A stretch of 64,000 bases of DNA from Candidatus Enterousia sp. (GCA_045593065.1 JAZNVZ010000002.1:71183-135182); one strand, 5' to 3'; shown: positions 1,888 through 7,816, numbered from the stretch's first letter. Numbers and translations: made by a program. The notes: generated by a model from the letters alone, not told the origin.

Positions 1888-2712
1888 ATGTTAAAACCAA
1901 TCGTTTGTGCGGCATCTATGATGCTGATTTGTGGCACATCATTTGCGGCATTGCCAACCGTGAAATTAAATAATCAATACAGAAATACGGTGAACAATTC
2001 TGGGGTAGTCAGTGCGCCCGTATCTTATGACAGCCCTGTGATGGTCAGCAAGACCAGTGATATTACCACAGCGATAGGTAAAAATTATGTTGGTAAACCT
2101 TATGTCGGATATAATAATTCAGGCAGCGCAACAACTGCTGATTTGCGTCAAGATATTGCTAATTTGGAAAGCAAAATTACCGATGTTTTGGATGATTTAC
2201 AAAATTTGTCTGACAAGGTAGAGGCGGTTGCAGATGATATTCCCACGATTGGGTTGGTTTTGCCAAACAGAATGGATGATTTAGAAAAACGGCTTGATGG
2301 CGTTAACAAACGCATGGAATTAATAGAACAGCAAGATTTGCCAGGATATATTGACAAGGTTTCTGGCGAATTAAATGCACAAATGCAAAAAATTGCCGAT
2401 ATTGATAGGGTGACAGGCGAAGTAAAAGATGAGTTGGATAAACGTATGTCCAAAGTTGGCACAGAAATCGAAAGTTTGCAAAAACAGACCAAAGATTTAC
2501 AAACGACTTATTTGAATATCAGTGATACATTGCGCGATGATGTGCAGAAAAAAGTAGCGGCAAACGCTGAACATATCAGCGAGTTGAAAAACGGTTTGCA
2601 AAATGCAAATTTGTCGGTTATTGATTTGCAGAATAATGTTAGCGATATAAAAAAGCAAATGGAAAGTATGGAACAAAGAATTATTAGTTTGGAAGAAAAG
2701 ATGCAAAAATAA
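1888..2712 (+). CDS. secreted coiled-coil protein (signal peptide, heptad-rich), function unknown
   Basis: N-terminal hydrophobic signal (MLKPIVCAASMMLICGTSFA); long Q/E/K/L-rich coiled-coil region; good SD. Confidence 0.6.
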   Translation: MLKPIVCAASMMLICGTSFAALPTVKLNNQYRNTVNNSGVVSAPVSYDSPVMVSKTSDITTAIGKNYVGKPYVGYNNSGSATTADLRQDIANLESKITDVLDDLQNLSDKVEAVADDIPTIGLVLPNRMDDLEKRLDGVNKRMELIEQQDLPGYIDKVSGELNAQMQKIADIDRVTGEVKDELDKRMSKVGTEIESLQKQTKDLQTTYLNISDTLRDDVQKKVAANAEHISELKNGLQNANLSVIDLQNNVSDIKKQMESMEQRIISLEEKMQK

Positions 2713-2772: not shown

Positions 2773-3852
2773 GTGATAAAATTTTTTAGATTATTTTTTG
2801 TGTGTATATTTGCAGCAATTACATTGCCTGCGGTGGCGAATACAGAACTGGCCAAGATTCAATCGCAAATTCGCCAAACTGAACAGCAAAATAAAAAATT
2901 ACAAGAACAGGTTAAAAAATCTGATAAAAATGTGGCGCAAACCAAGCAGGATTTGGTGCGAACCGCCGACAGAGTCAGTTCTTTGGAAGAACAACGCGGT
3001 AAAATGCAAATCAAAATCGAAGAACTGGATGCACAACGCGAAAAAATTGCGCGTGAATTGGCGGCAAACCAAGGACGGATTTTGGATGCAATATCTGGGA
3101 TGCTGTATATGGCCAATCACCCCAGTTTTGATGTGAATGATATGCACGAATATGTGTTGACATCATCTGTGTTGTCTGGGATGTCGCAACAATTTGATGC
3201 AGAAATTCAAAAGGCATCGCGCCAGTTGGATGAATTGGCCAAAATTATCAATGCACGCAATGTCGAAAAAGAAAAATTGGATAGAACAGCAAAAAAATAT
3301 ACTCTGGAACGCAATGCGTTGGACAAATTATTAAAAACACGCAGTGCACAAAACGAGAAATTAAAAAATCAACAAATTGCGTTACAGAAAAAATTACGCG
3401 CGTTGTCTGAAAAGGCAAAAAGCATTTCTGAATTGTCTGCCGGGGTCGGCAGTTCGCAAATGTCCAGCGATGAACGGTTTTCGCGGCGCAAATTAAATTT
3501 GCCTGTGCGTGGACGCGTTGTTGTGCATTTTGGTGAAAAGACCGCCTTGGGATTAACATCTGACGGTTGGCGGATTAAAACGCGTGGCGATGTTTTGGTA
3601 ACGGCACCTGCGGATGGGGTGGTGAAATTTGCTGATGTTTTCCGTGGATTTGGGCGCGTTGTGATTATATCTCATAAAAATGGTTATAATACTGTGATTA
3701 CGAACATGGGGCGCGTGGATGTTGTCCCAGAACAAGAAGTTTTGGCAGGCGAGCCAATCGGTCGTATCAGTGCAGATAAATCAGAAACATATATAGAGGT
3801 TCGCCGTGGCAACAAGGCGGTTAATCCTGCGCGTTTGTTCAAAGAAGAATAA
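2773..3852 (+). CDS. EnvC-like murein hydrolase activator (coiled-coil plus degenerate LytM/M23 domain)
   Basis: Signal peptide, long coiled coil, C-terminal M23-like domain lacking the HxxxD and HxH metal ligands (WRIKTRG / TYIEVRRG in their place), as in EnvC; GTG start at 2773. Confidence 0.7.
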   Translation: MIKFFRLFFVCIFAAITLPAVANTELAKIQSQIRQTEQQNKKLQEQVKKSDKNVAQTKQDLVRTADRVSSLEEQRGKMQIKIEELDAQREKIARELAANQGRILDAISGMLYMANHPSFDVNDMHEYVLTSSVLSGMSQQFDAEIQKASRQLDELAKIINARNVEKEKLDRTAKKYTLERNALDKLLKTRSAQNEKLKNQQIALQKKLRALSEKAKSISELSAGVGSSQMSSDERFSRRKLNLPVRGRVVVHFGEKTALGLTSDGWRIKTRGDVLVTAPADGVVKFADVFRGFGRVVIISHKNGYNTVITNMGRVDVVPEQEVLAGEPIGRISADKSETYIEVRRGNKAVNPARLFKEE

Positions 3853-3855
3853 TTT

Positions 3856-4560
3856 TTATTTGGTGCGTTTATTCAGCGCTTTGATTATATCGTGTTGTGT
3901 TTTTAACATACTGTCGCACATGTATGTTGTGTATGCTTTGTTGTCGCCTTGTAATCGCGCGCGCAGCATGTCAACATATTGTTGTGTGTCGTGTTTTTTG
4001 TTAAATAATATTGGGGTATAATTATTTTGCAATAAATACCAATTCATAACAATACGCCCAGTGCGTTTATTAAAATCACAGAATGGTTGTATGGCAATAA
4101 TATTGTAATGAATGTCAAATGCCTTGGTCAAAATGTTGTTTTTGTCAGTATTCATTTTGTAAATGGCAGTATTCAATAAATCAATAACTTTTGTTGGGTC
4201 TGGTGCTGGGGCGCCCAAATTATATGCCATGCAATATCTAAAAGTACCGCCAGAAATACCGCAGTTATTATTTTGCGCGATTATTGAATTTATATGACAT
4301 ACATCAGCCATAGTAATAGGGTGTTTTGTTTTTAATCGTTGCAAAACATAATCCCAGGCATTTGCCATATTGCGTATGTTTGTAAAGTCCGTAATCCCTG
4401 TGTTATTTGGTTGCAACCTTTGTGCTTCGTTACCAAATTCACTGTATGCATAACTTTGTAAATTCCAACGCAGGAAACCATCGCCATGTGTCAATGGTTT
4501 TATCTGGGTTTCATTGATTTGTTTAATAAGATTTTTTTTATCTTTCATATTTGATATCAT
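3856..4560 (-). CDS. Fic/Doc family protein with non-canonical motif (QPFCDFNKRTGR)
   Basis: Fic core motif HPFx[DE]GNGRxxR is recognisable as IQPFCDFNKRTGRIV; catalytic His replaced by Gln and a Doc-like NKR in place of GNGR; start taken at ATG 4560 (MISNMKDKK). Confidence 0.65.
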   Translation of the reverse strand: MISNMKDKKNLIKQINETQIKPLTHGDGFLRWNLQSYAYSEFGNEAQRLQPNNTGITDFTNIRNMANAWDYVLQRLKTKHPITMADVCHINSIIAQNNNCGISGGTFRYCMAYNLGAPAPDPTKVIDLLNTAIYKMNTDKNNILTKAFDIHYNIIAIQPFCDFNKRTGRIVMNWYLLQNNYTPILFNKKHDTQQYVDMLRARLQGDNKAYTTYMCDSMLKTQHDIIKALNKRTK

Positions 4561-4692
4561 AATACACAAAACTGTTTTGTCAATAAAATTAAATTTGTGT
4601 ATTAAAAATACGAATTTTCGTGTTGCAGTAAATCTTTTTTTTTAATATGCTGTGTTCATAGTGGGCACGAGGAAGAGAAAGGATTCCAAATT

Positions 4693-6144
4693 ATGTTAAA
4701 AAAAATCTGTGTATGTTTGGCTTTGTTAACATTTTCTGTGGATTGTTTTGCCGCGAATAAATCAACACAGCAAGAACCTGTGGAACATTTGACCGATGCG
4801 CAAATCTATCAAGAATTACAAAAATTGGCGTTGGTTTTTGAAACGGCGCGCGATAATTTTGTCGAAGAAGCAGACGAAAAGAAAATGTTAGAGGCCGCAA
4901 TGAACGGCATGTTGGCGGAATTAGACCCACATTCTTCGTATTTGAATACCGATGATTTCAAAGATTTTAATGATAAATCCCATGGCGAATTTGGCGGTTT
5001 GGGGATTCAAATCACGTCTGACCGTGGGGCGATTCGTGTTATTTCGCCGATTGATGATACCCCCGCGGCCAAGGCAGGAATCAAGGCCGGTGATTACATT
5101 ACCCGCATTGATGATGAACAAGTGTTTGATATGACATTGAATCAGGCCGTTAAAAAAATGAAAGGGCGCCCCGGCACCAAGGTTAAATTAACTATTGTAA
5201 ACGAAGACCACGAAACCAAAACATTGGTGTTGAAACGCGATATTATCAAGGTAAAATCTGTCAAATTCCGCGAAGTGCAACTGGCGGATGGCGATGAAGA
5301 TACACCACGGGTTGGGTATATTCGTATTTCTGATTTTGGGGCAACAACTGTCAAAGAATTAAATGATGCAATCAAAAAATTAGAAAAGGCCAAGGTCGTT
5401 GGCTATGTCTTGGATGTGCGTAATAACCCAGGCGGGTATTTGACTGCGGCGATTGGTGTGTCGGATGCGTTTTTGGACGATGGCGAAATTGTGTCCACGC
5501 GTGGCAAAGAAAAAACAGATGTTGACCGCAGTTTTGCAAAACCTGGGGATTTAACGAATGGCAAACCGATTGTTGTGTTGATAAACCATGGTTCTGCATC
5601 GGCATCCGAAATTGTTGCAGGCGCGTTGCAAGATAATGGTCGTGCGTTGGTGATGGGGTCGCAAAGTTTCGGCAAGGGCAGTGTGCAACAACAAAAACCG
5701 TTGGGTGATGGGACCGCTATTCATATCACTATTGCGCGTTATTATACCCCCAGTGGACGTTCCATTCAAAACGAGGGTATTACCCCTGATGTCCCTGTTT
5801 TGCAATCGCGTGTCAAGGTGTTGGAAAAACGCGATAGCGAATATTCCGAGGCATCATTCAAAAATTCTTTGAAAAATGAAGATGCAAAAAAGACCAAGAA
5901 ATCTAAAAAAGATTCCAAGGTTAGGGATGATGATGACGATGATGAAGATATTGATGATAAAGATTTGACCGATGAAGAAAAAGATGCGCGTGATTATCAA
6001 CTGCAACGCGGCGTTAGTATGGTTATTGCAATGACAAAAATGCAAATGACCGTGGATGACAGACGCGCCGTTGTTGATGCAGAAAACGCCGAAAAAGAAA
6101 AGGCCAAAGAAAAAGCCAAGGCCAAAGCAGAGAAAGAAAAATAG
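4693..6144 (+). CDS. ctpA: carboxy-terminal processing protease (S41 family, PDZ domain) with highly charged C-terminal tail
   Basis: Signal peptide; PDZ segment (GIKAGDYITRIDD); S41 catalytic region (HGSASASEIVAGALQD, KGSVQ); C-terminal 100 aa low-complexity acidic/lysine stretch (DDDDDDEDIDD...KEKAKEKAKAKAEKEK). Confidence 0.85.
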   Translation: MLKKICVCLALLTFSVDCFAANKSTQQEPVEHLTDAQIYQELQKLALVFETARDNFVEEADEKKMLEAAMNGMLAELDPHSSYLNTDDFKDFNDKSHGEFGGLGIQITSDRGAIRVISPIDDTPAAKAGIKAGDYITRIDDEQVFDMTLNQAVKKMKGRPGTKVKLTIVNEDHETKTLVLKRDIIKVKSVKFREVQLADGDEDTPRVGYIRISDFGATTVKELNDAIKKLEKAKVVGYVLDVRNNPGGYLTAAIGVSDAFLDDGEIVSTRGKEKTDVDRSFAKPGDLTNGKPIVVLINHGSASASEIVAGALQDNGRALVMGSQSFGKGSVQQQKPLGDGTAIHITIARYYTPSGRSIQNEGITPDVPVLQSRVKVLEKRDSEYSEASFKNSLKNEDAKKTKKSKKDSKVRDDDDDDEDIDDKDLTDEEKDARDYQLQRGVSMVIAMTKMQMTVDDRRAVVDAENAEKEKAKEKAKAKAEKEK

Positions 6145-6211: not shown

Positions 6212-7606
6212 TTATGGGTTGGTATATTCTTCGCCGCTGTCGTCATATACAGAATACACGGTGCCACCAACATTAATTTTCAGGTATTGGTCGACATTAT
6301 CACTCATTTTAATATTTGCAGTAGACATGTTGGCATAATAAATCGTATTACCAATCTGTACATTTAATGTGCGTGTGGTTTGTCTGTTTTGACGCAAATA
6401 AATTGTATTTGTGCCGATATGTAATTCATATCCGCAATCGTTGGCCTCGTCTGCGCCAAAACCGTGCCCAACCGTGGTTAATCCTGTTGGGCATTGTGTG
6501 CGGATGTCGCTGTTGTTTGCGGACCAATATCCCGGTCCCACAGCAACACATACGCCGTTGTTGCGATAATAGCCGCCACCACACATTGTTCCAGAATCTG
6601 GGACCCATGCAGCATAAAATGTTTTGGGGGTTGTGGTATAAATTGGAATTGTTTGGGACATGGCGCAATCCGTCAGTGCGGAATCTGTGCACCATCCGGC
6701 AAATGTATAGTTTTGCTTTGTCGGTGTGCCAGAAATCGTTGTTGCCTCGTCGTCCCAGAATGTTGTTGGTGCGCCTGTGTAATTTGTTCCGCCGTCTAAT
6801 ACATATGTAATTGCGTATTGGGTTGCACATGATACCTTGGAATTCCAGTATGATTCATACCCTGTTATATATTGACGATGATTGGTCCCAGTGCATGATG
6901 TATCCAAACCTGTATTGTAAAATATGCTGGACATCATGGATGTTCCATACGGGTGCCCGTTTTGAATTAGTCCCCCAAATGTGGATGGCGGAATAAATCC
7001 AGACAATGATGAACAATTATAAAAAGCTTGATAAAATGTATAGTTGTATGCATCTGTTATCCCACGGAATAAATTTTCGGGAATAGATGTTATTTTTTTG
7101 CAATTATAAAATGTTCTGTAAAATCGGGGGCGCAAAGCATCCGTGGTGCCCAATATTGGGAACACAGCAGACAAATCGCCACTGATTTCAGTAAAATAAT
7201 CTTTGTTCGTGTTAGACGGTCTAAAAGAAATTGCGGGGGTTGTTGTACCATTGTAATACCCCGTGGCCACACCCCCAATTCGTATCTTGTATTCCCCTGG
7301 TTGAGAATACTGGTGTGTGATTGAATCAAGTGTTGTATTGTTGCGTGGTTTTGTTTCTGCATCACTGTTGTCGCCCCAATCAATATAAAATGTGCCGATG
7401 GCAGAGATGGAGAATGATACAGAGGTGTTTTTTTTGGACGTTTCGGCAGTAATGGTGAATTTTACATCCACACAGGAATTGTCCGGCAGGGTGATTTGGT
7501 CGGTGGTACATGCGTTTGCGGTATTTATTGCACCAAATAACAGCGCCACGGCATACCCCGTACGCATTGCAAATAATTGAAGATTTGATATTGTCAAATT
7601 ACGCAT
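6212..7606 (-). CDS. secreted cysteine-containing repeat protein, paralog of the N-terminal region of the 1116-aa protein at 29456-32806 (BspA-like LRR-type FxxCxxL repeats)
   Basis: Signal peptide (MRTGYAVALLFGAINTANA-C); N-terminal 150 aa alignable with the 29456-32806 product (FTITAETSKK...GTFYIDWGDNS vs FTVTTTNMAAN...GTFYVDWGEGT); repeated FYNCxxLxxIP motifs. Confidence 0.6.
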   Translation of the reverse strand: MRNLTISNLQLFAMRTGYAVALLFGAINTANACTTDQITLPDNSCVDVKFTITAETSKKNTSVSFSISAIGTFYIDWGDNSDAETKPRNNTTLDSITHQYSQPGEYKIRIGGVATGYYNGTTTPAISFRPSNTNKDYFTEISGDLSAVFPILGTTDALRPRFYRTFYNCKKITSIPENLFRGITDAYNYTFYQAFYNCSSLSGFIPPSTFGGLIQNGHPYGTSMMSSIFYNTGLDTSCTGTNHRQYITGYESYWNSKVSCATQYAITYVLDGGTNYTGAPTTFWDDEATTISGTPTKQNYTFAGWCTDSALTDCAMSQTIPIYTTTPKTFYAAWVPDSGTMCGGGYYRNNGVCVAVGPGYWSANNSDIRTQCPTGLTTVGHGFGADEANDCGYELHIGTNTIYLRQNRQTTRTLNVQIGNTIYYANMSTANIKMSDNVDQYLKINVGGTVYSVYDDSGEEYTNP

Positions 7607-7699
7607 CAATATAAAACCATCCCCCCACGTTTGTTGCGCTAAATCCTGATACCAGAATTGTAAGAAGTTCTGGCATTAAAAGCAAGGAGTAAAAATAAA

Positions 7700-7726: not shown

Positions 7727-7816
7727 TGGCGGAGCGTGTAGGATTTGAACCTACGGACCGCGTTACCACGGTCACGGATTAGCAATCCGCTGCATTTACC
7801 CCTCTGCCAACGCTCC
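7727..7816 (-). tRNA. tRNA-Ser (anticodon GCT)
   Basis: Reverse complement folds as a cloverleaf: acceptor GGAGCGT/ACGCTCC, anticodon loop TTGCTAA, long variable arm, encoded CCA end. Confidence 0.85.

Follow-up and report, generated by a model that had tools for sequence, protein, structure and literature searches.

The 64,000-nucleotide stretch of Candidatus Enterousia sp. DNA analyzed here (GCA_045593065.1 JAZNVZ010000002.1:71183-135182; the window) carries, at 3856..4560 on the minus strand, a gene for a small Fic-domain protein in which the catalytic His of the family is replaced by Gln and the second Gly of the signature loop by Lys. Profile comparisons make the protein FICD-like and probably a class II Fic, whose gatekeeper helix would be intramolecular, and among the relatives compared the Gln and the Lys are strictly coupled. 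Judged by the residues of its pocket, the protein has most likely lost canonical AMPylation, and we weakly favor, at slightly less than an even chance, the reading that the catalytic site has been retooled toward a phosphoryl transfer or a hydrolysis in which Gln would position the attacking group and Glu45 would be the gate or the base. This is not the discovery of a new kind of system. The gene is a minimal variant, with an aromatic residue at the first Gly, a gatekeeper reduced to its Glu, and no winged helix-turn-helix (wHTH) domain, of a motif class that had already been noticed computationally.

The gene is a single uninterrupted open reading frame (ORF), and the 234-residue product read from the ATG at 4560 is identical to an NCBI-derived protein (P0001) in a large protein collection. 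It matches the Pfam Fic family (PF02661) with E=1e-14 and 55.5 bits, against a cutoff of 24, over profile positions 2-93 of 93. In a phmmer search against all PDB sequences, human FICD ranks first (E=3.6e-9). An earlier interpretation made from the DNA letters (the sequence-only reading) had proposed a Fic-fold protein, and these matches bear it out. The signature loop, QPFCDFNKRTGR, lies at 4054..4089 on the minus strand (residues 158-169); its codons, read directly, are CAA CCA TTC TGT GAT TTT AAT AAA CGC ACT GGG CGT, and it matches human FICD HPFIDGNGRTSR residue by residue. The phmmer alignment sets "aiQPFcDFNKRTgRivmN" on FICD "yiHPFiDGNGRTsRllmN" and extends to "wyLlQnnYtPI" on "liLmQagYpPI". 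This confirms the register, with no mis-registered canonical His, so that the His-to-Gln replacement claimed earlier holds: Gln158 stands at the position of FICD His363, and the canonical catalytic His is absent. Phe163 occupies the position of the first Gly and Lys165 that of the second, the latter having been likened before to the Lys of Doc and now read as FNK at 163-165 from both codons and alignment. The Gly-Asn-Gly anion nest is therefore lost, with Asn164 retained. Asp162 (the Mg position), Asn164, Arg166, and Arg169 are canonical; in the family Asp162 is at least 90% conserved, and Arg166 and Arg169 are invariant.

Further elements resembling those of class II Fic proteins were recognized in structure predictions and profile alignments. 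An AlphaFold 2 (AF2) model built with 78 sequences predicted the fold with high confidence; with only 8 close homologues the predicted local distance difference test score was 48.3 and the model was unusable. The protein is predicted to have the all-helical fold of the Fic superfamily, including the loop that joins helices 4 and 5 and the beta-hairpin flap. The N-terminal gatekeeper helix, similar to the inhibitory helix (alpha-inh) of other Fic proteins, corresponds to 4414..4479 on the minus strand (residues ~28-49, modeled as a helix at 28-49) and carries the invariant Glu45 (codon 4426-4428) and Leu49. The profile alignment sets the family's "selskEnkiL" on FICD "htvaiEGNtL", which pairs Glu45 with Glu234. 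Of the gatekeeper motif [ST]xxxE[GN], only the Glu survives; neither the S/T nor the G/N is kept (EFGNEA; SEFGNEAQ). The segment aligned with the FICD flap lies at 4201..4251 on the minus strand (residues ~104-120, GGTFRYCMAYNLGAPAP); its Gly105 and Arg108 are at least 90% conserved in the family and are also present in canonical Fic proteins. Short strand or bridge residues are predicted by AF2 at 107-118, and phmmer aligns the segment with FICD "eaGrFRttqv".

The relationship to FICD rather than to Doc was consistent across searches. The family profile retrieved FICD from the PDB with E=1.7e-26 over profile positions 11-229, followed by Caenorhabditis elegans FIC-1, CdFic, BT_2513, and SoFic; Doc was not retrieved from the PDB at E<=1. 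The NCBIfam model DOC_P1 (TIGR01550) gave only a weak match (E=0.0016, score of 18.6 against a cutoff of 38.65), and hhalign aligned just 24 columns with Doc, at a probability of 41%. As to the Doc motif HxFx(D/N)(A/G)NKR, the NKR is present, the His is Gln, and the Ala/Gly is Phe. On these comparisons, the Doc-like NKR is a resemblance of the pocket and not a sign of kinship.

No antitoxin gene was found at the locus: the gaps to the flanking genes measure 3 bp and 132 bp, and no small ORF is conserved. The sole ORF that enters the 132-bp spacer is not conserved (E>=0.057), and any conservation of the remaining overlapping ORFs reflects the Fic reading frame that they shadow. The absence of an antitoxin partner, noted before, thus stands, and it would be explained by the intramolecular gatekeeper helix with Glu45. 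Across the family, no partner gene lies between the Fic gene and its flanking genes in 15 of the 17 loci examined; one locus (L007) carries an unassigned ORF downstream of the Fic gene.

Two other placements were considered and rejected. A role in antiphage defense was suggested by a PADLOC SoFic match (E=1e-16) and by PDC-S04 matches; these are at the domain level only, the locus is fixed and of housekeeping character, the score against the SoFic equivalog model (NCBIfam NF046030) is 27.8 for a cutoff of 550, and the locus lies outside any defense island. A mobile-element origin was likewise set aside: the plasmid and phage collections contain only relatives of less than 30% identity.

The altered loop is a stable property of the family. 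A word-indexed search returned 8 proteins at 54-100% identity, among which the loop "IQPFxDFNKRTxRIxMNW" is invariant. A genome scan added seven more loci in metagenome-assembled genomes from rumen, sheep colon, and feces, labeled as uncultured Alphaproteobacteria or Candidatus Enterousia. At 37-40% identity, members retain QPFND[FY]NKRTAR. When 1.84 billion cluster representatives were searched exhaustively with the profile, ~45 clusters fell below E=1e-21, and every full-length one of them has Q[PA]Fx[DN]xNKRxxR. The first-Gly position varies across the family (F, Y, C, L, or M). Across 40 aligned sequences, the most distant at 26% identity, the residues that never vary are E45, L49, H151, Q158, N164, K165, R166, R169, L176, D191, Y195, and Y210. 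The ORF is intact in every lineage, and the codons turn over synonymously throughout the loop: Gln is encoded by CAA in 14 loci and by CAG in 12, and both AAA and AAG are used for Lys. Invariance despite the use of both synonymous codons points to purifying selection specifically for Gln158 and Lys165.

The same two positions separate this protein type from canonical Fic proteins. When the residues at the catalytic His and second Gly positions were paired in 150 relatives with a complete core, the Gln/Lys combination occurred in 67 and His/Gly in 78, with one case of Gln/Gly and none of His/Lys. In a column-by-column comparison, only positions 158 and 165 were class specific. G105, R108, D162, N164, R166, R169, N173, and Y195 are common to the Gln-type and His-type proteins.

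The coupled pair extends well beyond the family of the window. A broader profile search collected 3,959 proteins below E 1e-6, and all 113 of the new hits listed combine QPFxDGNKRTAR with a canonical SxxIEG ("SS[KR]IEG") gatekeeper, mostly in proteins of ~350 residues. Those of them that were checked carry a winged-helix domain at the N terminus. They are annotated only as "Fic family protein" and come from, among others, Patescibacteria and an archaeal bin. One cluster of wHTH-QPFEDGNKR proteins comprises 510 sequences on 227 contigs from gut metagenomes (L020-L025, 5001-6041), where the gene lies between AAA-ATPase/PDDEXK_9 genes and adjoins a class A beta-lactamase gene. We take these contigs to be Bacteroides-like. 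The presence of so large a cluster in gut contigs indicates that the Gln/Lys class is common in well-sampled gut bacteria. A motif-masked neighbor-joining tree set the wHTH-QPFxDGNKR class next to the window family, and a third small group, with QPFxDANKR, elsewhere; the tree of Gln-type and His-type cores was unbootstrapped and does not settle between a single origin and several origins of the Gln/Lys pair.

In three independent contigs, a further QPFYDGNKR subgroup of 257 residues with a canonical TALEGN gatekeeper helix is preceded, 8 nucleotides upstream of the Fic gene, by a gene for a DUF4325 protein of 83-93 residues (L016 2923-3174, L017 4081-4362, and L018 979-1260). The DUF4325 protein could be the partner of that subgroup.

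The motif itself has a precedent that the sequence-only reading did not mention. Khater and Mohanty (Sci Rep 2015) grouped Fic/Doc sequences by motif, in a purely computational study, and described as "clade D2" a set of 45 proteins, all bacterial and most of them single-domain, with Qx[F/Y]x[D/E][G/V]NKR, in which the essential His is replaced by Gln; from selection they reasoned that the proteins might not be dead, and they placed the clade inside the Doc subfamily (PMC4454073). Compared with the D2 consensus, the only form of the clade used here, the window loop agrees at Q, F, D, and NKR and has Phe at the [G/V] position. Literature searches on pseudo-Fic proteins, replaced His, and GNKR returned only this study on the Gln motif, and no experimental follow-up was found.

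The loop of Fic enzymes is known to be rewired with their chemistry: GNGR goes with AMPylation, ANGR with phosphocholination, and ANKR with phosphorylation, the same catalytic His serving in all of them. The His of canonical Fic enzymes takes the proton from the hydroxyl of the target (PMC8401265). With a side chain at the second Gly position, the triphosphate can no longer bind normally, an effect predicted for Beps, and in Doc the Lys at this position prevents canonical ATP binding, the ATP being inverted and the activity that of a kinase (PMC8401265). FICD requires its His for both AMPylation and deAMPylation; in the latter, His363 donates a proton to the leaving group, and the attacking water is lined up by Glu234 (PMC8373988). 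Since the protein of the window has no general base and its Lys, together with the aromatic residue, would fill the nest for the alpha- and beta-phosphates, we infer that it no longer transfers AMP from ATP.

The pocket would still bind a phosphate-bearing ligand and, along with it, a peptide segment of a target protein; the orientation of the ligand would probably be altered and Doc-like. The reaction would then probably be a phosphoryl transfer or a hydrolysis, be it the erasing of a modification or an activity of the NTPase type. Gln158 would position the attacking hydroxyl or water without deprotonating it, and Glu45 would gate the site or act as the base, as Glu234 does in FICD deAMPylation. 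The weak preference for a retooled site is given because Gln, the Mg-binding Asp, and Glu stay exactly invariant across thousands of sequences, a degree of constraint beyond the needs of a dead site. A bolder form of this proposal is that the Gln/Lys Fic proteins, including those with wHTH-QPFxDGNKR, form a distinct, His-independent catalytic class of Fido enzymes; we put it forward tentatively, as having an appreciable chance that falls well short of even. By analogy, its mechanism could combine an inverted, Doc-like nucleotide with a Gln that places the water or hydroxyl as Gln61 does in Ras-type GTPases, and with the gatekeeper Glu as base. If such a class exists, the Fic repertoire would gain a new posttranslational modification, eraser, or NTPase chemistry.

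Several points weigh against a retooled catalytic site. Gln cannot serve as a general acid or base. The His is essential in every characterized Fic activity, including phosphorylation by Doc and deAMPylation by FICD (PMC8373988). Given both facts, a noncatalytic role is equally natural. The literature searches gave no experimental results on any Fic protein of the Gln/Lys type. The PDB has no entry of the Gln/Lys type, the best solved relatives all being of the His type, and Glu45 is placed next to Arg169 and Lys165 by homology only. No conserved partner or operon points to a substrate. The Fic protein also evolves quickly, being 37-63% identical between loci versus 75-89% for CtpA and 66-86% for the M23 peptidase, the products of its two flanking genes, and this could mean weaker constraint outside the pocket. 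Finally, Bartonella BepC, which has a noncanonical FIC motif, acts by binding and has no detectable enzymatic activity (PMC8401265).

The competing explanation that the protein is a pseudoenzyme has a considerable chance of being right, if less than an even one. It would make the domain a dead binding module that has no turnover and holds either a nucleotide or a protein segment bearing a phosphate or AMP, its pocket and flap acting as a sensor or adaptor, and in the sister class as a sensor coupled to the N-terminal winged-helix DNA-binding domain. The general base is indeed lost at Gln158, the joining of the same pocket to a wHTH domain is an architecture typical of ligand-sensing regulators, BepC offers the precedent of a noncanonical Fic domain that works by binding alone (PMC8401265), and strict conservation of the pocket is equally expected of a high-specificity binder. 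A dead site would nonetheless not be expected to hold exactly Gln, since other polar or small residues should be tolerable there, nor to retain both the Mg-binding Asp and the gatekeeper Glu without exception; the Gln-Lys coupling looks like coordinated retooling, and the selection argument of Khater and Mohanty runs the same way (PMC4454073). The sequence-only reading had left a choice between a dead pseudo-Fic and a divergent Doc-like enzyme. Its Doc kinship fell with the profile and hhalign comparisons; its dead alternative may hold, although the coupling and the invariance across thousands of proteins argue against a simple loss.

The other explanations are far less probable. A residual canonical AMPylase, in which Gln is a poor stand-in for His and the gatekeeper Glu is autoinhibitory, is improbable. 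It would account for the remaining AMPylation residues and the gatekeeper Glu being kept, and a His-to-Ala mutant of IbpA shows residual AMPylation while His-to-Gln mutants of other enzymes keep some activity (cited in PMC4454073). However, the Lys at the second Gly and the Phe/Tyr at the first should block the nest for the alpha- and beta-phosphates (PMC8401265), and the coupling, with not one His/Lys protein among the 150 relatives, suggests a different binding mode and not a mere weakening. It is very improbable that the gene encodes a Doc-type toxin, a kinase that phosphorylates EF-Tu within a toxin-antitoxin module: the xNKR loop and the weak DOC_P1 match (E=0.0016) are set against a model score below its cutoff, the failure to retrieve Doc from the PDB, an hhalign alignment limited to 24 columns, the missing His that Doc requires, the lack of room for an antitoxin or of any conserved small ORF, a chromosomal position fixed across deep divergence, and the lack of close plasmid or phage relatives. 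Membership in the Doc family is largely refuted. That the gene is decaying or an annotation artifact without function has next to no probability and is refuted by the conservation data; its G+C content is lower than that of its neighbors and it diverges quickly, yet no lineage has a broken ORF, the loop stays invariant while its codons turn over synonymously, the predicted promoter is conserved, and the fold is predicted with high confidence.

Whichever of the leading readings holds, the coupled switch from His to Gln and from Gly to Lys in a very large set of proteins would reflect either His-independent chemistry or widespread Fic "reader" pseudoenzymes. The copy in the window is a convenient minimal test case, being a single-copy gene, stable in Alphaproteobacteria of the gut and rumen, for a single-domain protein of ~230 residues with no fused or partner protein. 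It gives a clean entry point to a question about a very large branch of the Fic superfamily.

The start of the gene can be placed with the help of its promoter. The ORF extends mechanically over 3856..4569 with a TTG start. A sigma-70-like promoter, TTGACA-16 nucleotides-TATGAT, was found by a consensus scan at 4556..4583 on the minus strand with 11 of 12 matches, and probably acts as the Fic gene's own promoter. Its -10 hexamer, TATGAT at 4561-4556, covers the annotated ATG at 4560, and the ATG at 4548 comes 7 nucleotides past it. Because of this overlap, the ATG at 4548 (MKDKK..., 230 residues), which is also the start in the homologue P0002, is probably the true one, with little or no leader. 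This suggests an mRNA that is leaderless or nearly so, starting near 4548. Each of the 12 related loci examined has the element TTGACAAA and then a -10-like hexamer ahead of the Fic gene, and in some of them a short leader with an AAAGG-like Shine-Dalgarno sequence comes after TTGACAAA. The N terminus, read directly, is hydrophilic and has no signal peptide; the product is predicted to be a cytoplasmic, single-domain Fic protein. The G+C content of the gene, 0.34-0.36, is below that of the flanking M23 peptidase and ctpA genes (0.42-0.45; window 3600-4800), which would fit an old foreign origin or a weaker constraint.

The Fic gene is flanked by genes of the plus strand. On one side, at 2773..3852, lies a gene for an M23 peptidase with a coiled coil, similar to LytM/EnvC (Pfam Peptidase_M23, E=7e-16), which converges on the Fic gene with 3 bp between the stops. 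On the other, at 4693..6144, lies ctpA, which encodes an S41 carboxy-terminal processing protease with a PDZ domain (Pfam Peptidase_S41, E=1.5e-59); it is transcribed divergently across the 132-bp spacer, as the sequence-only reading had described. The Fic gene adjoins ctpA divergently in 12 of 12 loci in which that flank was present and examined (L001-L011 and L013). It lies directly between the M23 gene and ctpA, on the opposite strand, in 9 of 12 loci, including that of P0037 at 27% identity. Upstream of the M23 gene lies tyrS in the loci with gene calls available. As exceptions, no M23 match appears in the stretch fetched for L007, the flank on the ctpA side is missing from L012, and the upstream gene of L019 is unassigned. 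The M23-Fic-ctpA arrangement occurs in Alphaproteobacteria of gut and rumen. Its stability is best read, from these gene orders, as an old insertion into an M23-ctpA pair that has been inherited vertically as a stable chromosomal gene. A functional link of the Fic protein to its neighbors was considered and found no support: the gene is on the opposite strand, has its own predicted promoter, and encodes no signal peptide, while the neighbors are envelope proteases.

In two genomes, an additional gene of the APH family (aminoglycoside/choline kinase-like; Pfam APH, E=1.6e-9) begins 4 nucleotides past the Fic stop, between the Fic and M23 genes (L008 8668-9600 and L009 8690-9619, both on the plus strand). 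Both genomes carry distant family members, and neither the window nor any of the other loci has the APH-like gene, which may be a functional partner or may have been inserted by chance.

On the ctpA side, the sequence GAATTTTCGTGTTGCAG followed after 17 nucleotides by TATGCT lies upstream of ctpA at 4612-4651 on the plus strand. Its core (reverse complement CTGCAACACGAAAAT) is kept in L001-L005, and in L010 with one mismatch. This is the probable promoter of ctpA and may include an operator. In that case, ctpA would have a promoter of its own, now that the Fic gene parts it from the M23 gene.

Other features of the surroundings were also recorded. Between tyrS and the M23 gene, the window encodes at 1888-2712 (plus strand) a 274-residue protein that has a signal-like segment at its N terminus and also a long coiled coil; tblastn found no match to it in any related locus, where tyrS and the M23 gene adjoin, and it appears to be an insertion specific to the source genome. 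The CtpA of the window ends in a long, highly charged, low-complexity tail (5850-6144, plus strand; KKTKKSKKDSKVRDDDDDDEDIDDKD...EKEKAKEKAKAKAEKEK). The tblastn alignments of CtpA to related loci end at residue 451-462, the tail there being either missing or too divergent or low in complexity to align. Beyond ctpA, at 6212-7609 on the minus strand, a 465-residue ORF with a TTG start has a hydrophobic N terminus, a match to Flg_new (Listeria-Bacteroides repeat; E=1.9e-9), and a weak PKD match, features that probably mark a secreted or surface protein. A tRNA-Ser(GCT) follows at 7727-7816, just beyond this ORF.

Among known systems, the class II proteins FICD/HYPE, FIC-1, BT_2513, and SoFic are the relatives from which the protein of the window departs at three loop positions, His being replaced by Gln, the first Gly by Phe, and the second Gly by Lys; it also lacks their TPR, membrane segments, or wHTH domain. 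The wHTH-Fic proteins with QPFxDGNKRTAR share its Gln/Lys pair and gatekeeper Glu. They differ in their length of ~350 residues, their winged helix, their SxxIEG helix, and the Gly kept at the first Gly position, and they are scattered among accessory genes with no fixed locus. Clade D2 is alike in its Gln for His, its NKR, and its single-domain, bacterial proteins. By consensus motif alone, it differs in having Gly or Val where the window family has Phe, Tyr, Cys, Leu, or Met, and it was placed with Doc, whereas the protein of the window and the QPFxDGNKR proteins are FICD-like and probably of class II, with a gatekeeper helix. The Doc toxin of phage P1 (Phd/Doc) has the same Lys at the second Gly followed by Arg (xNKR). 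However, Doc has 126 residues, keeps and requires its His, and is paired with the Phd antitoxin, none of which applies here, and it is without the beta-hairpin flap (PMC4454073). Bartonella BepC and Bep8 resemble the protein of the window in their degenerate FIC motifs, with the Fic fold and loop conformation kept and the residues of the pocket changed (PMC8401265).
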